This document shows positions 1-10,813 of a stretch of 64,000 nt of DNA, in pieces. Below the pieces are notes generated by a model. It saw only the letters and a list, made by a program, of their open reading frames with translations. It did not search any database and was not told where the DNA came from. How positions within the stretch are numbered: the stretch's first letter is position 1; every line of letters starts with the position of its first letter. The position numbers and the translations under genes are program-made. The stretch lies in the NCBI GenBank assembly GCA_052168235.1, contig JBQLZK010000002.1, positions 256,001 to 320,000 of the forward strand. The letters run 5' to 3'. Source of the stretch: Thainema sp. Its GTDB lineage: Bacteria; Cyanobacteriota; Cyanobacteriia; Phormidesmidales; Phormidesmidaceae.

Positions 1-572
1 AGTTTACCTATCAGCAAAAGATGGGTAAGTACGAGGAGTTTAAGAATATTTGTCTGGTGGATACACTGGATCACTGCAGTGCAGCAGGCCACCAGTTTGA
101 CCTGTTTGCTATGAGTGTGCAGAACACGTCGCGGATTCAGCAGCAGAACGATCGCACCATCTCTGTCATCATCGGCAATCCGCCCTACAACGCCCACCAG
201 GAAAACTTCAATCAGCGCAACGCTAACCGCCCCTACCAAAGTATCGATAAGGCCATCAAAGACAGCTATATCAAGGAAGGCACTGCCCAGAACCAAATCG
301 TTGTCTACGATATGTATACCCGCTTCTTTCGCTGGGCAACGGATCGATTAGGCAAGAACGGAATCATCGCGTTTATTACTAATCGCTCTTTCATCGACTC
401 GAAAACCTTTGATGGCTTTCGTAAATGTATTGAGCGAGACTTTGACCATATCTACATTGTGGATACTCAATCAGATGTGAGAAACAATCCCAAAATCTCT
501 GGCACCAAGAACAACGTTTTTGGCATTCAAACCGGAATCGCTGTGATGTTTTTAGTAAAAGCGCAGGGCTAG
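1..572 (+). CDS. Adenine DNA methyltransferase half of a Type ISP-like restriction-modification enzyme (5' partial, runs in from upstream)
   Basis: IIGNPPY catalytic motif; YDMYTRFFRWATDR, GIIAFITNRSF and NVFGIQTGIAV segments typical of LlaGI/LlaBIII-like MTase regions; frame is open back to the window start. Confidence 0.85.
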   Translation, partial: FTYQQKMGKYEEFKNICLVDTLDHCSAAGHQFDLFAMSVQNTSRIQQQNDRTISVIIGNPPYNAHQENFNQRNANRPYQSIDKAIKDSYIKEGTAQNQIVVYDMYTRFFRWATDRLGKNGIIAFITNRSFIDSKTFDGFRKCIERDFDHIYIVDTQSDVRNNPKISGTKNNVFGIQTGIAVMFLVKAQG

Positions 573-2749: not shown

Positions 2750-2770
2750 TGGTGCTGTGAGCAACCATTT

Positions 2771-2840
2771 CAAACTCTCCGATACCAAGAACAACGTCTT
2801 TGGCATTCAAACCAGAACCGCTGTCATGTTTTTAGTAAAA
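2771..2840 (+). repeat. Diverged copy of the 3' end of the MTase gene (491-560)
   Basis: 62/70 identical by manual alignment, no gaps. Confidence 0.95.
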
Positions 2841-2860
2841 ACTGCTGAGGAGAAAAAGCC

Positions 2861-3130
2861 ATGATTCAACCTACTTTGTTAGAGAAACTAGAGGTATTAC
2901 CAGAATCACTACAAACGGAAGTGCTGCATTATGTTGAATTTCTGTTAGAGAAACACCTCAAAAATAAACCACCTAGCCTTTTAGAATTACGGGAAGAATT
3001 ACAGCAGGAATTAGCGCAACTCACGCCGGAAGAAGCGGAAAAGCGTTATGGATATGGTAGCCTGAAAGGCCAGATTATCATGTCTGATGATTTTGACGAG
3101 CCGCTAGAAGATTTAGCAGAGTATATGTAA
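2861..3130 (+). CDS. DUF2281-type antitoxin
   Basis: LPESLQTEVLHYVEFL N-terminus and GSLKGQIIMSDDFDEPLED C-terminus; lies directly upstream of a PIN gene. Confidence 0.8.
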   Translation: MIQPTLLEKLEVLPESLQTEVLHYVEFLLEKHLKNKPPSLLELREELQQELAQLTPEEAEKRYGYGSLKGQIIMSDDFDEPLEDLAEYM

Positions 3131-3131
3131 C

Positions 3132-3521
3132 ATGCCGATCCTTTTAGATACTCATGCTGTCCTTTGGTATGTTGAGTCAGATCCTAGCCTTAGTGCTAAA
3201 GCTAAGGCTATTTTAGATGCCAAAAAGAATCTGTTTTTTAGTACTGCTAGCCTGTGGGAAACTGCCATCAAGCTCAATGTCGGTAAACTCCAAATCACTT
3301 CGTCATTTAATCAGCTTCTGATTCGGCTTGAGTTCCTGAATATGGAAATTTTGCCGATCAATACAGAAGATCTCAATACTTATATTGGTCTACCTTTATC
3401 GAAGAATCACCGTGATCCCTTTGACCGTATTTTGGTGGCTCAATCCATTAACCATTCAATGCCTATCTTGAGTGGTGACGAGAAATTTGATTTGTATCCA
3501 GTTCAGCGGGTGTGGGAATGA
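3132..3521 (+). CDS. vapC: PIN-domain VapC-family toxin
   Basis: LLDTHA, SLWETAIK, HRDPFDRILVAQ and LSGD motifs. Confidence 0.9.
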   Translation: MPILLDTHAVLWYVESDPSLSAKAKAILDAKKNLFFSTASLWETAIKLNVGKLQITSSFNQLLIRLEFLNMEILPINTEDLNTYIGLPLSKNHRDPFDRILVAQSINHSMPILSGDEKFDLYPVQRVWE

Positions 3522-3544
3522 GCAAGGCAAAAATCTATTACTTT
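3518..3544 (+). repeat. Copy of the 5' start of the specificity gene (629-655), degenerating shortly afterwards
   Basis: ATGAGCAAGGC(A/G)AAAATCTATTACTTT, 26/27 identical; its ATG overlaps the vapC stop codon. Confidence 0.95.
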
Positions 3545-3659
3545 GCTGCGAGATCTGAGGCGGAGATTACGGACAGAAAACCCAGAATCGTGATAATCCA
3601 AGATTGGACTGTAGCGCGATCGCGCTGATTCCCTATACAGCCTTCTTACTCCCCAACCC

Positions 3660-4970
3660 ATGACCCAACCCCTCTCTGACCTCGCCCGCGAAAAAAATAT
3701 CTGCTACTTCCTGATCTCCTTCACCGATTTATTCGGCACCCAACGCGCCAAGCTTGTTCCTGCTGCTGCAATTGACGAGATGGCCGCTAGCGGAGCGGGA
3801 TTTGCCGGATTTGCCACCTGGCTCGACATGACGCCTGCCGATGCCGACATGTTTGCAGTTCCCGACACTGATAGTCTATTCCAGCTACCTTGGAAACCCG
3901 ATGTCGCCTGGATGCCAGCGGATTTGTTTACGCCGAGGATGGATGCGATCGCACAAACGCCGCGCATGGTGCTTCAGCGAGTCCTCCAGCAGGCGCGAGA
4001 CATGGGCTACAGCGTCAAAACGGGGGTGGAATGCGAGTATTTTCTGCTGTCACCGGATGGCGAGGCGCTGTCTGATCCCTACGATCGCCAGGTGAAACCC
4101 TGCTATGACCAGCAGGCACTGATGCGGCGGTTTGATGTGATTGCGGAAATCTGCGATGCCATGCTGGCGCTGGGTTGGGGAGCCTACCAGAACGATCACG
4201 AAGACGCCAACGGTCAGTTTGAGATGAACTGGATGTATGCCGATGCGCTGATCACGGCGGATCGGCATGCGTTCTTTAAGTACATGGTCAAGTCCATTGC
4301 CGAAAAGCATGGTCTGCGAGCCACGTTCATGCCCAAGCCGTTCGCGCACCTGACCGGGAATGGCTGCCACACTCACCTCTCAGTGTGGGACACCAGCGGC
4401 ACAACGAATCTATTTCACGATCCAGAAGGCGAACTAGGTCTGTCGTCACTGGCCTACAACTTCATTGGCGGCGTAATGCATTCAGCATCAGCGCTTTGCG
4501 CCTTTACCAATCCAACCATTAACTCCTACAAGCGGATTAATGCGCCCACCACCCTGTCCGGCGCAACTTGGTCGCCCAATACCGCCAGCTACAGCGGCAA
4601 CAATCGCACCCATGCCATCCGAATTCCTGACTCTGGACGGTTTGAGCTGCGGTTGGCCGATGGTGCAGCTAATCCCTATTTACTCGCAGCGGCAATGGTT
4701 GCGGCAGGACTGGACGGCATTGCCCAGAAGCGTGACCCTGGCCCCCGCTGTGACAACAACAACTACACCGAGCCGCTGCCACAAGGTTCAGCGAAGCCTC
4801 TGCCTGCCAATCTATTAGATGCCTTGCGGCAGTTGGAGCAAAATACCGTCTTCCAGGATGCGATGGGAGCAGAGTTTGTACAGTCTTATCTCAAGCTCAA
4901 GCATCAGGAATGGAACAGCTACCACGCTCAAATTACGCCGTGGGAACGGGAAACGACGCTGGATTGTTAG
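3660..4970 (+). CDS. glnT: Type III glutamate-ammonia ligase (GlnT / gamma-glutamylmethylamide synthetase-like)
   Basis: FTDLFG.QRAKLVPA, GAGFAGFA, YQNDHEDANGQFEMN, ATFMPKPF, GNGCH, ELRLADGAANPYL; C-terminal TTLDC. Confidence 0.85.
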   Translation: MTQPLSDLAREKNICYFLISFTDLFGTQRAKLVPAAAIDEMAASGAGFAGFATWLDMTPADADMFAVPDTDSLFQLPWKPDVAWMPADLFTPRMDAIAQTPRMVLQRVLQQARDMGYSVKTGVECEYFLLSPDGEALSDPYDRQVKPCYDQQALMRRFDVIAEICDAMLALGWGAYQNDHEDANGQFEMNWMYADALITADRHAFFKYMVKSIAEKHGLRATFMPKPFAHLTGNGCHTHLSVWDTSGTTNLFHDPEGELGLSSLAYNFIGGVMHSASALCAFTNPTINSYKRINAPTTLSGATWSPNTASYSGNNRTHAIRIPDSGRFELRLADGAANPYLLAAAMVAAGLDGIAQKRDPGPRCDNNNYTEPLPQGSAKPLPANLLDALRQLEQNTVFQDAMGAEFVQSYLKLKHQEWNSYHAQITPWERETTLDC

Positions 4971-4987
4971 GGTTGCCTCCTAAAGAT

Positions 4988-5566
4988 TCAGCGTTTTACG
5001 CTGTAATAAAGCAGCAGTACACCGTTGGGATAAATTTTGCTGTCGGTCAGATCTAACGCCATTTGTGGAATCACGTTAGCGAATAGCGGGATGCCTGCAC
5101 CCATCAGAAAGGGATTCAGTTTGAGAATGAGCTGATCGATGAGCTGGTTAGCAAACAGGGTGCTGGCCAGATTTGCGCCACCGCAGAGCCAAATGTCCTT
5201 GCCATCTTCCGCTTTTAGCTGTTGCACCACCTCAATGGCCTGATCTGAAACCAGTTTAACGTTGGCGTCTGGGCTTTCCGAGATGCTGCGAGAAAAGAGG
5301 TACTGCCTCAGATGCGTATAGGGACTGGTGACGCCTTCCTTGAGGCCAACTTCATAGGTTTTGCGCCCCATCAGCACCGTATCAAACCGCTGATTGTCGC
5401 CGTCAACGCCCATCACCTCACGCAGATGGGAGGGAACCGTTTCAGGAAAAGTGGCAAATAAATCAGCAAAATAGTCCTGATCCTGCGAAAATCCATCATG
5501 GGAGCCGTTGGTATGAGCAATAAAGCCATCTACGCTGCAAGCGACGTAATAAATTAGGTTTCGCAT
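4988..5566 (-). CDS. Dihydrofolate reductase / RibD C-terminal family protein
   Basis: YVACSVDGFIA, LMGRKTY, IWLCGGANLA and GAGIPLF; start placed at MRNLIYY with a GGGAGGG RBS. Confidence 0.85.
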   Translation of the reverse strand: MRNLIYYVACSVDGFIAHTNGSHDGFSQDQDYFADLFATFPETVPSHLREVMGVDGDNQRFDTVLMGRKTYEVGLKEGVTSPYTHLRQYLFSRSISESPDANVKLVSDQAIEVVQQLKAEDGKDIWLCGGANLASTLFANQLIDQLILKLNPFLMGAGIPLFANVIPQMALDLTDSKIYPNGVLLLYYSVKR

Positions 5567-5630
5567 TTGGCCCTCCCTCACTACACAAGCTTGAGCAGCC
5601 ACTTGATATTACTGCTTGTCGTGGTGTTGA

Positions 5631-5734
5631 ATATCAAATCTGTGTATAGGAACCCAATTTATTTTTTGTGAAACGTTTGTGGAGCAAACGTTTCACAAAA
5701 AATAAATCATGGGTTTTCAACCCGACTTGGATAT
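5631..5734. repeat. Small dispersed palindromic element with an internal 23-bp-arm hairpin (5657-5707)
   Basis: ATATCAAATC...GACTTGGATAT ends; similar ends at 20629-20722. Confidence 0.6.
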
Positions 5735-5761
5735 AAGCCATGATTTTGGATGGACTACCGA

Positions 5762-6514
5762 CTATTTTTGAACGGCTGTGAAACCACCATCTACGACTAA
5801 ATTGTGGCCCGTCACGAAGGCTGCGCCATCGGAGCAGAGCCAAACGACGGCCTCGGCGATGTCTTCGGGTGCGCCAATTCGCTGGAGCGGGATGCCAGCA
5901 GCCACCTGATCCAGCATTTCAGGGGGTGCGCCTGCCCACAAGTCTGTTTTCACTGCGCCAGGGCTGACCGTGTTGATCCGAATTCGATCAGCCGAGTACT
6001 CAGCGGCGGCGGCACGGGAAAGGGCAATCACGCCAGCTTTGGCGGCTCCGTAGGCTCCATATCCGGCAACTCCCAACAGTGCGCCTTGCGAAGACGTGTT
6101 GACGATCGCACCTCCGCCTGACTGCTGCATGACCGGAATCTCGTACTTCATGGACAGCCAAACCGACTTGAGATTCACGTTCATCTCAAAATCCCAGTCG
6201 GCTTCCGATAGCTCTGTGATGTTGCCAGAGGTGCCAGAACCCGCATTATTAAAGGCATAGTCCAGCCGACCATAAGCGGCAACGGTCTGCTGAATCATCT
6301 TCTCCACATCTGCTGCTTGGGTAACATCGGCTTGCACAAACATGGCATTGCCACCCGCTGCCTGCACCAGTTGAACCGTTTCTTCTCCCTGGTTCACGCG
6401 GCGGGCGACGACGACAACGCTTGCGCCTGCTTGGCCAAATGCGATCGCAGTTGCCCGACCAATTCCCGAACTTGCCCCAGTCACAATTGCAACTTTGTCA
6501 GCCATTGAAGTCAT
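5762..6514 (-). CDS. SDR family oxidoreductase
   Basis: TGASSGIG, NNAG, YGAAK catalytic motif and VDGG. Confidence 0.92.
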   Translation of the reverse strand: MTSMADKVAIVTGASSGIGRATAIAFGQAGASVVVVARRVNQGEETVQLVQAAGGNAMFVQADVTQAADVEKMIQQTVAAYGRLDYAFNNAGSGTSGNITELSEADWDFEMNVNLKSVWLSMKYEIPVMQQSGGGAIVNTSSQGALLGVAGYGAYGAAKAGVIALSRAAAAEYSADRIRINTVSPGAVKTDLWAGAPPEMLDQVAAGIPLQRIGAPEDIAEAVVWLCSDGAAFVTGHNLVVDGGFTAVQK

Positions 6515-6831
6515 ACTGTTTGTCCTTAACCCACAGATGATTGCAGAGATAATTCGGTAAGAGTATTACTAAAAGCTGAATAGTGATTGTTGTATTTCAT
6601 ACGAAATAAGTATGAATAAAATTAGAGTATGAATAAAATCAAAGCCCAATAAAATTGGAAAGAACTACAATTTTTAGATTTAGTTCATTTGATTAATATT
6701 CTTACACCCACCTATAGCAGCATGCGATCGCAAAAAGGACTCTGTCTTATGCAGGTGTAAATACGAAAATATTCTTCATAGCCTTAGTAAAGCATCTATC
6801 AATATGAGCGTCGAATTACTAAGGATTAGAT

Positions 6832-7485
6832 ATGAATAACATTCACCCAATAAAACTCAAACAAGCTGGGCTTCTAGGTATTATGGGCGGCAGCTTATTA
6901 GCTGGATTTTCTGTTTTTGCTCCTCAAGCCTCGGCTCAAATTAACCCCTGTCCGGGCATCTATTACGAAGAGCCTTACAGCTTATATGTAGCTAGCCCAG
7001 AAGGATGTCCACCCAATGCGCGGGCCGAAATGCTTCAGGCTCAACCAGGTCAAGGCGGTACCTATCCGTCTCAGGACGATACGATGTTGGGAACCGGCTC
7101 TAATCCGATGATTCGCCAGCCCAACATGCAGAACTATCCTTATGAGCAGGACTGGACCACTACTGCATCTCCAATTGCTCGCGTAGAGCCAACGAACGGT
7201 ACGGTTAATATTCAGTTGATGAATTCAACTAATATTCCCATTTATTACGAGGTGACTGGAGAAACTGGGCGTCGCATCATTGCCGCTCAAGATGAAGCCT
7301 ATCTGCAAAATATTTCTTTGCCAGCAACTATCACGGCTGTCCGAACTGATGATGGTCTATTACAAGTCATTCCAGAACGGAATGATGAGGGTATCTTAGA
7401 GCTTTCACTAGAGGAAGATCCCACGTTTGATGACACCCAAGGCGTGATTCGCATCCAATCGGATGGACAAGTATTTGTGAACTAA
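6832..7485 (+). CDS. Hypothetical secreted protein
   Basis: Signal peptide-like N-terminus ending ASA; AAGGA RBS; 217-aa ORF. Confidence 0.75.
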   Translation: MNNIHPIKLKQAGLLGIMGGSLLAGFSVFAPQASAQINPCPGIYYEEPYSLYVASPEGCPPNARAEMLQAQPGQGGTYPSQDDTMLGTGSNPMIRQPNMQNYPYEQDWTTTASPIARVEPTNGTVNIQLMNSTNIPIYYEVTGETGRRIIAAQDEAYLQNISLPATITAVRTDDGLLQVIPERNDEGILELSLEEDPTFDDTQGVIRIQSDGQVFVN

Positions 7486-7534
7486 GCCGTTTTTTCGTTT
7501 GAAGCTTAGGACGATCTGAAGCCTACAGCCATCT

Positions 7535-7589
7535 TAAATTGATGATGAACAGGCCGCCCCAACGGGGCGGCCTGTTCATCATCAATTTA
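7535..7589. terminator. Perfect 26-bp-arm hairpin, probable terminator or REP-like element
   Basis: TAAATTGATGATGAACAGGCCGCCCC-aac-GGGGCGGCCTGTTCATCATCAATTTA. Confidence 0.7.
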
Positions 7590-7758
7590 GTTCATCAGCT
7601 ATTTCAACTTGATATCACCTAGAAGATAGATTTAATTTATATTCTGTCTGACTACAATCCCTTCGGTCATCGCAGTTGAGTTATGACGTGTGATTGTGAC
7701 TTGAGAATTGCGATCGCATCATGCCATCGATGTCACTTAATGAGGTGAAATAGGCTTT

Positions 7759-9006
7759 ATGCGGGATATGCCAAGCGATCGAAGCATAGACAGCACGTTA
7801 GCATTAGCATCGGAGGGATACTGTTTCATCTCTAATCGCTGCGATCGCTACCAGTCTGAGATTTTTCAAACGCGGCTGCTGTTGCAAAAAGCGATTTGCT
7901 TTCGGGGAGAAGAAGCGGCCAAAGTTTTTTACGATACCAGTAAATTTTCACGCCAGAATGCCGCGCCCAAGCGAATTCAGAAAACGCTGCTGGGTGAGGG
8001 TGGTGTTCAGGGTTTAGACGGTGAAACCCATCGACAGCGCAAGCAGATCTTCATGTCGCTGATGACGCCGGAGCACATGGCTGAACTGACGGAACTGACG
8101 CAGCAACAGTGGCAGGCTGCGGCTCAAGCCTGGGAAACCTGCGATCGCATTGTGCTGTTTTATGAAGCCCATAAAGTTCTCTGCCGTGCGGTTTGTGCTT
8201 GGTCAGGTGTGCCGCTGCCTGAAGCAGACGTTGAGCAACGATCAGCCGATGTGGCGGCTATGATCGACGGATCGGCTGGTTTTGGGCTGCGCCACTGGCG
8301 AGCTAGGCAGGGGCGTAAAAAGTCCGAACAGTGGATTAAAAAGCTGCTGGAGCAGATCCGCGCCCGTGAACTAGACGTGCCGGAAAACAGCGCCGCCTAC
8401 GCGTTTGCTTGGCATCGTGACACCAACGGCAATTTGCTCGATAAACATGTGGCAGCCGTTGATTTATTAAATGTTTTGCGCCCCGTTGTTGCGATTTCGC
8501 GCTACGTTGTCTTCGCGGCTCTGGCACTCCATCAACATCCAGAATGCAACACTAAACTGCAAACTGAGGACGATTACATAGAGCTATTTACGCAAGAAGT
8601 TCGCCGCTATTATCCATTTTTTCCATTCGCCAGGGCTTATACTCGCCACGCTTTTGACTGGCATGATTATCATTTCCCCGCAGGAACACAGGTTTTACTG
8701 GATTTATACGGCACCAATCATGACCCCACTATATGGGAAGATCCAGAAAAATTTCAGCCAGAACGCTTTCGACACTGGAATGGCAGCGCCTTTAATTTCA
8801 TCCCGCAAGGTGGTGGTGATCACTACGTCAATCATCGCTGTGCTGGCGAGTGGATCACGATTCAAATTATGAAAATGACCCTAGATTTTCTGGTTAATTC
8901 CATCACTTACGACGTACCAGACCAGAATTTAGATACCCCTTTATCACGGCTACCCGCTTTGCCTAAGAGCCGATTTATAGTCAACAACATTGTTAGCTTA
9001 TCTTAA
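7759..9006 (+). CDS. Cytochrome P450, CYP152 fatty-acid peroxygenase family
   Basis: I-helix LNVLRP (Arg-Pro in place of the acid-alcohol pair), QEVRRYYPFFP, FIPQGGG and HRCAGE heme ligand. Confidence 0.9.
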   Translation: MRDMPSDRSIDSTLALASEGYCFISNRCDRYQSEIFQTRLLLQKAICFRGEEAAKVFYDTSKFSRQNAAPKRIQKTLLGEGGVQGLDGETHRQRKQIFMSLMTPEHMAELTELTQQQWQAAAQAWETCDRIVLFYEAHKVLCRAVCAWSGVPLPEADVEQRSADVAAMIDGSAGFGLRHWRARQGRKKSEQWIKKLLEQIRARELDVPENSAAYAFAWHRDTNGNLLDKHVAAVDLLNVLRPVVAISRYVVFAALALHQHPECNTKLQTEDDYIELFTQEVRRYYPFFPFARAYTRHAFDWHDYHFPAGTQVLLDLYGTNHDPTIWEDPEKFQPERFRHWNGSAFNFIPQGGGDHYVNHRCAGEWITIQIMKMTLDFLVNSITYDVPDQNLDTPLSRLPALPKSRFIVNNIVSLS

Positions 9007-9067
9007 AGAGTTTGCCTAACGTTAGGAAAATGTGGTGTCCGTTATTAGTTTAATTTGAGCCAATCTG

Positions 9068-9375
9068 CTAATCTATCTTATCTGAGGGTTCAGACGGTAA
9101 TATTCCATCTGCTAACCTGCCAATCATAAGCGGTGCAGAGGCACCAATATTAACTGCAACTATAGCGTTAAGTTCTACATCGCTTCGTAAATAAATACAA
9201 ACAAGACCGCCACCAGAAAAAATCATTAGAATTGTTATTATCCAATAACTTCTAGATTTCAACCAATCTGGCAGCTTTTTGAAACGACGAAATTTATAGA
9301 TCCCAACAAGTTCGCTGACAACACCTCCAAAAAATCCATAAAAAAAAACTCAGCCATCTCTTGCCATTCGGACAT
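9068..9375 (-). pseudogene. Small multi-TM membrane protein gene frameshifted in a T9 tract
   Basis: ATG at 9375 with GAGGTG RBS gives MSEWQEMAEFFF; adding one T at 9340-9348 joins it to YGFFGGVVSELVG...KSRSYWIITIL...; that frame has a TGA immediately before the tract. Confidence 0.7.
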
Positions 9376-9376
9376 T

Positions 9377-10813
9377 TTATAATGCACCTCGCTTATTAGC
9401 AAAACTATTATATATAGTCTTTGAAATAAAGACTCTGAGCAAAGACATTTTCTCTCTATGAGTAACTGGTTTTGAGAAAGAAGTATATAATACGTTTCCC
9501 TCACTATTAGGAACCATAGAGGCTCTAACATAGCGATTTGTATATCTCTCTAAAACAGACTGGACAAGTGATTCGTCTAGATTTGTTTCTGATGCTATCC
9601 CTTTTACAGTTCTAAAATCCCAATCCGGATTATTTACCGCGGCCAAAATTTTACTCTCCACAGCGGTTATATTCTCTACAATCTTACCTTGCCACTCAAA
9701 TATCGGGAATTTTGCATCAGAGGCTCGCTTGATACCAACAATGTATGCAGCTAATAAATACGAAATATTTTCGAGAAATTCAAGATCATTTTCTGTGAAC
9801 TTATGAATATAGCCTGTAAATAAAGATATAGTTCCTACCGATTCACCTTGGATAGCTAAAGGAAAGCATATAAAAGACTTTAACTTTTGTGCATGTATCC
9901 AATCTAGACTATGAAAACGCTTAATCTCTTTATCTATATCATTAATAATGATTGGTTCTTTTTTCTGATACGCCTCTCCAACCAAGTAGCCCTCTATCGA
10001 CCTTGGCTCAAGACCTTTTCCATTAAAAGATATATCCGAAGTGCATGAACGCTCAATGACAAAAAGTTTGTCCCCATGCCCCTCTCTTAAAATGCAGGCT
10101 TTATAGGGTGTTAGTGAACCAACAAATTGATCGGTTATCGATTTATATACTTCGCTCTGAGGAAATTTTCTATTATCAGGATCAGCTAATTTGCGGCTTA
10201 TATTTGCGTATATTCTGCTTTCTTGCTTTTTTCGAATTCGAGAAATTGCTGCTGAGACGTGTGCTCCTAAGACTGTTAACCAGCAGACTTCAGATTCTCT
10301 ATAAATTCCGTTGTTGTTGACGCTGGTACTGTTATAGCTGTATCTCTTGTTCAAAGTTTCTAAGGTTCCAAAAGTTCTATGAGTACCGTTTAGTGGAACT
10401 GAAACACCGCTTTTAAGAACTCCTAATTTTTCTAAATATGCAGAGCCGTATAAAAAATTTTCAATTTCATCTTCGAAGTTATTGATGTAATAAGTCTCTC
10501 CATAAGGAGAGCTAGAGTTAGAACTCCTTGGACGAGCAGCTTTACCCGAAAAGCTTTCTCCTGGCTTATATTCTTCACCCGAAAGCCAGTCGTTATCTAT
10601 AACTTGACCCTCAAAATCATAACCTTTTATTCGAATTCGCTTAAGAGTGTCATCTTTGGAGAACAAGAAAATAGAAATAACCTGAGGGTATAAATCTTTT
10701 TCTATTTTTTCGAATGTTATATCAATAACTTCTTCTAAGGAATCACATCTCAGGAGCCTATTCCCAAATTCTCGAAGCTCATAAACTTCTTCTAACCTTA
10801 TTTCAGCGTGCAT
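9377..10813 (-). CDS. Tandem GAF domain protein with a C-terminal winged-helix-like domain
   Basis: GESFSGKAA..SVPL..FGTLETLNK and SFICFPLAIQGESVGTISL..FTENDLEFL GAF patterns; WDFRTVKGIASETNL tail. Confidence 0.75.
   Translation of the reverse strand: MHAEIRLEEVYELREFGNRLLRCDSLEEVIDITFEKIEKDLYPQVISIFLFSKDDTLKRIRIKGYDFEGQVIDNDWLSGEEYKPGESFSGKAARPRSSNSSSPYGETYYINNFEDEIENFLYGSAYLEKLGVLKSGVSVPLNGTHRTFGTLETLNKRYSYNSTSVNNNGIYRESEVCWLTVLGAHVSAAISRIRKKQESRIYANISRKLADPDNRKFPQSEVYKSITDQFVGSLTPYKACILREGHGDKLFVIERSCTSDISFNGKGLEPRSIEGYLVGEAYQKKEPIIINDIDKEIKRFHSLDWIHAQKLKSFICFPLAIQGESVGTISLFTGYIHKFTENDLEFLENISYLLAAYIVGIKRASDAKFPIFEWQGKIVENITAVESKILAAVNNPDWDFRTVKGIASETNLDESLVQSVLERYTNRYVRASMVPNSEGNVLYTSFSKPVTHREKMSLLRVFISKTIYNSFANKRGAL

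Follow-up and report, generated by a model that had tools for sequence, protein, structure and literature searches.

A toxin-antitoxin pair beside a split methyltransferase operon in Thainema sp. as the probable relic of a second operon allele

The DNA considered here, referred to as the window, is a stretch of 64,000 nucleotides (nt) from the cyanobacterium Thainema sp. (contig JBQLZK010000002.1, positions 256,001 to 320,000) that opens inside a gene for a DNA methyltransferase (MTase), the 5' part of this gene lying outside the window. The MTase gene and the specificity-subunit gene that follows it make up the resident operon, and next to the stop codon of the latter lies a predicted toxin-antitoxin (TA) pair of the VapBC type, bordered on one side by a sequence resembling the 3' end of the MTase gene and on the other by a sequence resembling the start of the specificity gene. 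Why should a TA pair be parked between the likenesses of both sides of a junction which, in the resident operon itself, holds no such genes? An earlier note on this DNA regarded the arrangement as a spare cassette kept for exchange into that junction. The answer favored here, with a probability of about 0.7, is that the pair has outlived its host genes and remains from a second operon allele with the order MTase-VapB-VapC-specificity, of the type present at locus L002 (Egbenema).

Both repeats pointed out in the earlier note are present in the window. Resident positions 476–560 recur at 2756–2840 (85 nt, 73/85 identical, 86%), which extends the copy first noticed (491–560 against 2771–2840, 62/70), and positions 629–655 recur at 3518–3544 (27 nt, 26/27, 96%). 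Chance is not a sufficient explanation, because the best other ungapped matches in the 64 kb reach only 40/85 and 16/27. The repeats belong to two gene stubs on the + strand. The MTase 3' stub (2756–2864, 109 nt) starts 6 nt beyond the stop of the resident specificity gene, contains a GAGGAG Shine-Dalgarno-like motif and ends in the tail TAEEKKP; the specificity 5' stub (3518–3582) is decayed past its first 27 nt, where insertions and deletions shift its frame, and is traceable to about 3580. Between the stubs, which have the same orientation and flank the pair exactly, as a spare cassette would also have it, both TA genes are intact. The antitoxin gene comes first (2861–3130, + strand, 89 amino acids (aa), DUF2281/VapB family; Pfam DUF2281, E = 6.8e-17; NCBIfam TA_VapB, 86.3 bits against an equivalog cut-off of 60 bits) and is followed directly by the toxin gene (3132–3521, + strand, 129 aa, PIN/VapC type; Pfam PIN, E = 2.9e-16, residues 3–120), in which the acidic residues D6, E43, D95/D98 and D117 were assigned by eye from the translation, without a reference alignment. 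The overlaps described for the two joints are likewise present: the reading frame of the MTase stub (2733–2864) ends in FLVKTAEEKKP with its TGA overlapping the ATG at 2861, and the TGA of the toxin gene (3519–3521) overlaps the ATG at 3518 that opens MSKAKIYYF.

The origin of the segment is indicated by its alignment with L002. Positions 2756–3547 align in one piece with 8474–9265 of that locus (84.5% over 792 nt), through the MTase 3' end, both TA genes and the specificity start, so that the derivation from an MTase-[TA]-specificity allele proposed in the earlier note agrees with an existing operon of exactly this order. The MTase stub (2756–2864) is colinear with L002 8474–8582, tail included; the tail, the GAGGAG motif and the ATGA overlap also align with L008 and L040, and at this place the resident gene has a palindrome instead. 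Beyond ...MFLV[KR], split MTases of this family generally have only a few more residues, for example TKKEKKV, ARKEQKI or TAAENKK, the pattern being ...FLV[KR]TxKEKK and similar. Judged from the alignments, the FLVKTAEEKKP ending given in the earlier note is the ordinary C-terminus of a split MTase, not a junction made by an insert, and it is absent from the resident gene. By the same comparison the stubs are not copies of the resident junction and match the L002-type allele.

The rates of change point in the same direction as the alignment. The window antitoxin shares 91% and the toxin 78% aa identity with their counterparts in the L002 slot, and both genes are under purifying selection, the ratios of non-synonymous to synonymous substitution (dN/dS) against L002 being 0.054 and 0.207, respectively. 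The MTase stub, in comparison, evolves like a pseudogene by this measure (dN/dS against L002 of 0.45, with 9 non-synonymous changes in 28 codons), while over the same 28 codons the resident MTase shows a dN/dS of 0.05 and a single non-synonymous change. Synonymous distances (dS) between the parked TA genes and L002 are 0.55–0.71; the resident MTase stands at 2.4 from L002 and at 1.1 from L001, its closest relative, the slot of which holds a different TA (38% aa identity for the antitoxin, 42% for VapC). These distances point to different lineages for the parked TA and the resident MTase. The annotation that suits the segment best is an intact VapBC module between two pseudogene stubs, not a recombination device.

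The family to which the host enzyme belongs provides the context for such a relic. A protein search with the MTase fragment, confined to longer proteins, returned relatives of two forms, namely MTases of 576–580 aa, which are the nearest relatives of the resident MTase and indicate a full length of about 579 aa for it, and proteins of about 1000 aa that run on into the specificity domain. The MTase domains are ISP_coupler, N6_Mtase and Eco57I in L002 and in protein P0003, and Type_ISP_C is found both at 629–2749 of the window and in the fused relative P0049. Against the REBASE-derived PADLOC model REase_MTase_IIG (PDLC03621), P0049 matches positions 6–1010 of 1024 (E = 1.3e-269), the L002 MTase matches 6–588 (E = 9.4e-174) and the specificity proteins cover 592–1012; this full-length match to a curated Type IIG model is a similarity and does not imply cleavage. 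No nuclease or helicase domain was detected by Pfam in the 580-aa MTase or the 1000-aa fused form, and no adjacent restriction (nuclease or helicase) gene was present in L001 or L002, where the genes upstream lie on the other strand and are unrelated (MerR, cupin, antiporter). In the fused enzyme of Desulfonema magnum (L053, around 8560–8600), the linker FLVKTTENKKKKVGIHYFTL reads like the tail of a split MTase joined to a specificity start, and marks the position that cargo occupies elsewhere.

A scan of genome contigs with the MTase fragment matched 226 places, the best 80 of which, picked by MTase similarity, were examined as loci; the MTase, specificity, RAYT (a Y1 transposase family associated with repetitive extragenic palindromic (REP) sequences), antitoxin and toxin sequences were placed on them by tblastn, stops and starts were then located, and Pfam profiles were run on 63 open reading frames (ORFs) of the slots. 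The enzyme is fused in 39 of the 80 loci, the MTase running on into the specificity domain, and the other 41 have an MTase that stops at the junction. Of these 41, 29 carry TA genes in that place, which belong to two unrelated families: DUF2281 with PIN in 21 (the PIN gene truncated in L028), DUF2281 on its own in one (L014), and a DUF4258 toxin in seven (L005, L009, L017, L019, L027, L032 and L033, the last assigned by its ORF coordinates alone). In L005, L019, L027 and L032 the DUF4258 gene is accompanied by an MqsA/YgiT-like zinc-ribbon antitoxin, and the slots of L005 and L027 additionally contain a DUF2281 gene or fragment without PIN. DUF4258 is placed among the BECR-fold toxin families of the RelE/ParE superfamily, with DUF4258-MqsA fusions, in a published account (PMC11980606). 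Among the remaining slots two carry a REP palindrome at the same site as the window (L006, L026), four have a short gap or a TA remnant (L007, L018, L024, L025), four have other content and two are cut by contig ends (L059, L075). The L007 remnant consists of a DUF2281 fragment and the last bases of vapC, and the L024 gap ends with ATTTGGAAATAAAGATG, which is the toxin/specificity joint of its sisters L020 and L021. Other content includes a GIY-YIG nuclease gene (L035, 8727–9011) in a metagenome-assembled genome (MAG) of Methylococcales and a DDE transposase on the minus strand (L078, 2027–2875) in a Flavobacteriales MAG, both outside the cyanobacteria, as well as repeats (L047, L052). The split loci comprise 35 cyanobacteria from at least 12 orders and 4 others. 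The junction is thus, in these predicted gene contents, a real and polymorphic cargo slot; the tabulation suggested in the earlier note finds cargo in relatives and agrees with its view of a variable slot, one that is truly exchangeable as a spare cassette would require.

Slot cargo is tightly connected to its hosts. Of the 19 VapBC slots tabulated, 16 join the toxin gene to the specificity gene by an ATGA stop/start overlap and one does so by GTGA, and in 13 the MTase stop shares bases with the antitoxin start (8 ATGA, 5 TGATG/GTGA); two DUF4258 slots, those of L019 and L027, also begin with ATGA. Because stop/start overlaps usually link the cargo to both halves of the enzyme, all four genes are probably translated from one message. 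The hosts do not always last as long as the cargo. The specificity ORF is full-length in 14 of the 20 VapBC-slot loci in which its start is present, broken in four (60 aa in L001, 253 aa in L002, 281 aa in L004, 111 aa in L028) and runs off the contig in two; in L072 the TA is intact and most of the specificity gene is deleted. The gene is intact in all four DUF4258 loci that could be assessed. Judged from these ORFs, the TA outlives host genes elsewhere too (L001, L002, L004, L028, L072), an outcome that a spare cassette permitting deletion of the specificity gene with retention of the TA would also produce.

Cargo appears to move between alleles independently of the host genes. Over the 210 pairs formed by the window and 20 loci, mean identity is 82% for the MTase fragment and 49% for both TA proteins, and the identities of MTase and VapC are nearly uncorrelated (r = 0.20); antitoxin and toxin can themselves separate, as between L008 and L072 (89.5% and 40.3%, respectively). 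A sliding profile of L012 (VapBC) against L019 (DUF4258) runs at 93–98% until about 90 nt before the MTase stop, falls to about 30–45% across the slot, returns to 92–95% at the specificity start and diverges again in the middle of the specificity gene, so that flanks of about 95% enclose unrelated cargo; blastn reproduces these blocks. Across alleles, the conserved parts are the MTase 3' end and the first 100–270 nt of the specificity gene. Two records of Phormidesmis priestleyi differ in the same way, L010 having DUF2281-PIN and L019 having DUF4258 with a zinc ribbon in the slot, and they are similar within the operon only and not in the 6.7 kb upstream. In a quick tree of the MTase fragment (190 columns, many forks without support), 36 split rows fall on one side of a branch with an SH-aLRT value of 86 and 33 of them on one with 96; fused L074 lies inside the split group, and VapBC-bearing L029 and four rows with other content lie among the fused forms. 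This tree requires 6 changes between fused and split, and 18–20 changes of slot state. The identity profiles suggest that homologous recombination within the conserved arms exchanges the cargo; the exchange visible in these comparisons runs between alleles of different genomes, not from the parked copy.

The resident operon itself represents the state without TA. The part of its MTase gene within the window (3–572, + strand) comprises 189 codons, runs off the window start and matches Pfam Eco57I (E = 2.9e-12). The slot between the MTase stop and the specificity start (573–628) measures 56 nt and, as the earlier note observed, contains the palindrome CAAGGGGCTTAAGCCCCTTG (587–606) in place of cargo. 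L006 and L026 share this state, with the same palindrome at the same site, and their MTase reading frame terminates within it (...RQGA-stop). The similarity between the window and L001 ends at 567 and returns at 627. Measured against L001, the resident slot gives the impression that a palindrome has taken the place of cargo, so the resident lineage probably once had a TA of its own.

These observations can be joined in one proposed sequence of events. The segment from 2756 to about 3582 would be what remains of another allele, once an operon of four genes for MTase, antitoxin, toxin and specificity subunit; filamentous and unicellular cyanobacteria of one clade commonly have the enzyme in this four-gene form. 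Elsewhere among the relatives it is a single polypeptide of about 1000 aa composed of a coupler, an N6-adenine MTase and a Type ISP C-terminal specificity domain, and in the clade a type II TA pair within the linker splits its gene in two. The cargo varies by allele, from several very divergent DUF2281-PIN types to DUF4258 with a zinc ribbon, remnants or a REP palindrome. The resident operon is a cargo-less, REP-bearing allele, and the core of an L002-type allele would lie directly after its stop, with the old MTase gene presumably reduced to 109 nt, the old specificity gene to about 65 nt and both TA genes still intact. Tandem addition of the cargo-less allele beside the TA-bearing one, with later loss of the MTase and specificity genes of the latter, would produce such a state. 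The favored route is an additive integration of the incoming allele through one homologous and one illegitimate join, or through one crossover with a circular molecule, after which the old specificity gene was deleted. The survival of the TA is most likely due to the killing or disadvantage of cells that lost it, in line with the addiction established for type II modules. The pair probably rides at present as the distal genes of the resident operon, transcribed by read-through; a consensus scan between 2749 and 2861 found no terminator-like and no + strand promoter-like site.

Several points weigh against this interpretation. No near relative with the intermediate state occurs among the genomes compared, and the tandem route is a reconstruction; L001, the closest MTase locus, shares synteny with the window in the operon only. 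None of the 80 other loci has a TA between stubs downstream of its operon, the relic in L020 being different in make-up. The genes behind the dS values are short (89 and 129 codons), the MTase distances approach saturation, and the slot frequencies are valid for the best 80 of the 226 matching loci only. Toxicity, neutralization, co-transcription and methylase activity are all predicted properties.

Material downstream of the operon was also compared in other loci. Further TA genes lie directly 3' of the specificity gene in L011 (10589–11940), L008 (11197 onward), L055 (9910–10128), L013 (10533–10715) and L005 (11117–11326). In L011 these are a second DUF2281-PIN pair followed by HicAB-like and zinc-ribbon ORFs, and in L008 a HicB-like ORF overlaps the specificity stop by ATGA (HicAB and HicB were named by eye in both cases). 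Local alignment of the loci's own MTase 3' and specificity 5' ends to the stretch that follows the specificity gene in L011, L013, L005 and L020 gave chance-level matches of 8–19 nt, and a second MTase 3' stub was present in 0 of the 80 loci. L020, for its part, keeps the remains of another allele after its operon, namely a zinc-ribbon antitoxin, a C-terminal DUF2281 fragment and the last ~85 specificity codons, and tandem leftovers of displaced alleles may recur as debris of this kind. Extra copies of the last 40–95 specificity codons are found downstream of the gene in L043 (3777–7779, six tblastn fragments amid unrelated genes), L031 (9985–10309, two) and L020 (11069–11359, one); repeated integrations that duplicate the specificity 3' end would leave such fragments.

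The explanation that survives best next to the relic of a second allele, although it is unlikely, is a one-off tandem duplication of the resident junction within the genome, followed by decay, in which the second copy acquired the TA or the first one lost it and no allele from elsewhere took part. It accords with the start of the second copy 6 nt past the resident specificity stop, as expected of a duplication, and is not contradicted by the 85-nt overlap, which is non-discriminating since the parked stub is equally far (73/85) from the resident gene and from L001. It has difficulty with the lineages, however: the parked TA and its tail are L002-like, and the resident MTase is far from L002 and nearest to L001, whose slot TA is of another type, at the distances given above. 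It also requires at least three further events, and TA genes in the slot are so common in the clade that the parked copy needed no new insertion.

About equally unlikely is the idea that a fragment of about 0.83 kb, with an MTase 3' end, the TA and a specificity 5' end, arrived later by illegitimate insertion 3' of an operon that had never had a TA, as part of the selfish spread of the TA. A single event would suffice; TA genes are often found directly 3' of the specificity gene (L005, L008, L011, L013, L055), and related DUF2281-VapC pairs exist free-standing on plasmids of Picosynechococcus PCC 7002. A fragment with such arms would be expected, on the other hand, to recombine into the homologous slot and not beside it, the downstream TAs of other loci carry no MTase or specificity stubs, and the cargo-for-REP appearance of the resident slot relative to L001 makes it probable that the lineage did once have a TA.

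A functional spare cassette, possibly aided by the HUH (Y1) domain and serving for swap-in or for loss of the specificity gene with the TA kept, is very improbable even with a Y1-transposase domain and palindromes in the same operon, one palindrome lying in the slot itself, for its arms are short and diverged (longest exact runs of 15 nt in both), the MTase arm gains non-synonymous changes and the specificity arm is frameshifted after 27 nt, both arms match the L002-type allele with its tail and not the resident junction, a single crossover between direct repeats of either arm would by its geometry delete the specificity gene and never yield MTase-TA-specificity, no palindrome lies at the segment boundaries and the arrangement is repeated in 0 of 80 loci. 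Silent-cassette and shufflon-like switching systems are recognized by long, nearly identical arms and an adjacent dedicated recombinase, and the arms here agree at 73/85 and 26/27, none of their exact runs exceeding 15 nt. The only recombinase-like domain found is the in-frame Y1 insert of the resident specificity gene; no recombinase domain was detected in the ORFs of at least 200 aa scanned from 3660 to 9006, shorter ORFs there being left out. This stretch opens with a glutamine-synthetase-like gene (3660–4970).

Some further candidates were considered and rejected. Movement of the cassette by the RAYT was set aside on finding no palindrome at or near 2756 or 3582, the nearest lying at 2100–2113. 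A promoter or operator hidden in the MTase 3' end, as a reason for retention of the stub, was dropped because third-codon-position identity is not raised there (0.48–0.59 in the last windows against 0.46–0.67 elsewhere in 16 TA-bearing alleles, 8 fused controls being similar) and because no + strand promoter-like site lies upstream of 2861. Microhomology at the left boundary was discarded; the sequence following the specificity stop differs in 7 of 7 loci and no source was found for TGGTGC (2750–2755). An origin from a plasmid was rejected after blastn of 2750–3600 against PLSDB returned just two free-standing DUF2281-VapC pairs, the Picosynechococcus PCC 7002 ones, about 70% identical over 204 nt and without MTase context. 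A related pair on plasmid pAQ7 of the same organism is annotated in RefSeq as a DUF2281 protein and a VapC-family toxin.

The resident specificity gene (629–2749, + strand, 706 aa) matches Type_ISP_C in two stretches (E = 5.6e-92) and stays open to its native C-terminus despite an in-frame RAYT-like insert (1390–2122, + strand; Y1_Tnp, E = 2.2e-13, aa 328–426). The insert is bordered by the inverted repeat I1 (1390–1428/2084–2122), and its domain is bracketed two and two by GGGGCTTAAGCCCC palindromes at 1399, 1480, 1984 and 2100; it scores 54.8 bits with the NCBIfam model REP_Tyr_transpos, under the cut-off of 80 bits. The GGGGCTTAAGCCCC palindrome occurs five times in the 64 kb, against 0.01 expected, and all five copies are within this operon, the fifth, at 590, lying in the slot. 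The same insert is present in L008 (about 10040–10650) and L026 (about 1410–2060), with domains 77–79% identical, and the specificity ORF remains open in each case (706 aa in the window, 633 aa in L008, 675 aa in L026); the resident architecture, with a palindrome in the slot and a RAYT in the specificity gene, is colinear with that of L026. A perfect 28-nt palindrome, GTAGGGGCGAATGGCCATTCGCCCCTAC, is found in frame at 2357–2384, in a variable part of the gene, and encodes ...GVGANGHSPLQ..., the corresponding place in L003 and L006 reading ...RANGDSPLQ.... The RAYT-like insert itself lies in a loop of the specificity gene, after ...ITDWALEQFRxxY and before ITKxxIFHYTYAVLHHP. Three further genomes have another insert in this loop, likewise in frame, which consists of a DUF559 endonuclease-like domain between repeats that encode PSPAGEGxGER (L006, 8611–10665; L007, 3753 to the contig end; L021, 9207–10997). 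From its sequence the loop looks like a second insertion hotspot.

Several known systems resemble the slot. TA or toxin genes nested in restriction-modification (RM) operons include prrC, embedded in the Type IC system ecoprrI (PMC12707154), and DarTG2, located between hsdS and hsdR at a site called a potential recombination hotspot (PMC12255303), and embedded defense genes have been described more generally (10.1101/2024.01.29.577857). Another study reports PIN-like toxins transcriptionally coupled to type I subunits (hsdM/hsdS), adds that none was observed with Type II systems that have no specificity subunit, and notes that these arrangements are usually not conserved between close species (PMC5499597). 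As in RM-embedded TAs, the module described here sits between modification and specificity genes in the same orientation, at a hotspot with varying cargo (29 of 41 loci); in the window itself, in contrast, the pair sits after the operon, between stubs. Unlike Type I hosts, the enzyme is a single polypeptide in 39 of the 80 relatives, and the cargo lies in its interdomain linker, splitting it; unlike the Type I-embedded cases, the joints are stop/start overlaps and two TA families alternate. The slot arrangement also spans at least 12 cyanobacterial orders, unlike the arrangements of that study (PMC5499597). Co-expression of cargo and host is suggested by the stop/start overlaps; a functional dependence like that between PrrC and EcoprrI would go beyond this. 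In full-text searches of the literature, supplements excluded, no account emerged of an enzyme of the Type ISP/IIG-like kind with TA genes placed between its MTase and its specificity part.

A Type ISP enzyme in the strict sense unites, in one polypeptide, a Mrr-like nuclease at the N terminus with a helicase-like ATPase motor. The enzymes of the present family have ISP_coupler, N6_Mtase/Eco57I and Type_ISP_C in the same order as Type ISP/IIG enzymes of the LlaGI/LlaBIII type, but differ from Type ISP sensu stricto in that Pfam detects neither nuclease nor helicase in the 580-aa and 1000-aa forms. The cargo resembles the DUF2281-PIN pairs of Synechocystis (ssl0385/sll0205, ssl2138/sll1092 and ssr8013/slr8014, as examples; such pairs are listed in PMC4963859), with the same domain pair, antitoxin first and PIN toxin second. 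Classic VapBC pairs are free-standing bicistrons with their own promoter, whereas most slot copies have no intergenic space on either side, and the window pair has a gene stub where the classic pair has its promoter region. A maintenance or stabilizing role of TA modules is stated in general terms in two sources (PMC4963859, PMC5499597). Like addictive or anti-deletion cassettes, the TA is intact here while neighboring genes decay or are replaced; unlike stabilizing cassettes, it kept only itself and the host genes were lost.

The family-wide slot is a more interesting result than the parked pair. TA and defense genes are known to be nested in Type I RM operons, and the nesting site here is the linker between two domains of an enzyme. 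A tentative extension, doubtful at present, is that the linker is a dedicated, translationally coupled docking site for TAs and that the TA is a working part of the system, either as a lock on the specificity allele or as a PrrC-like back-up. As a lock, it would make replacement of the specificity allele lethal unless the TA was kept; as a back-up, it would fire upon shutdown of the methylase operon. Under this view alleles would trade TA cassettes by way of their conserved arms, and the window would be a caught intermediate, where the old TA would have admitted an incoming cargo-less allele at its side but not in its place. The system is suited to questions on the protection of neighboring genes by TAs, on the assembly and function of split methylases and on the wiring of a toxin to the state of a methylase.

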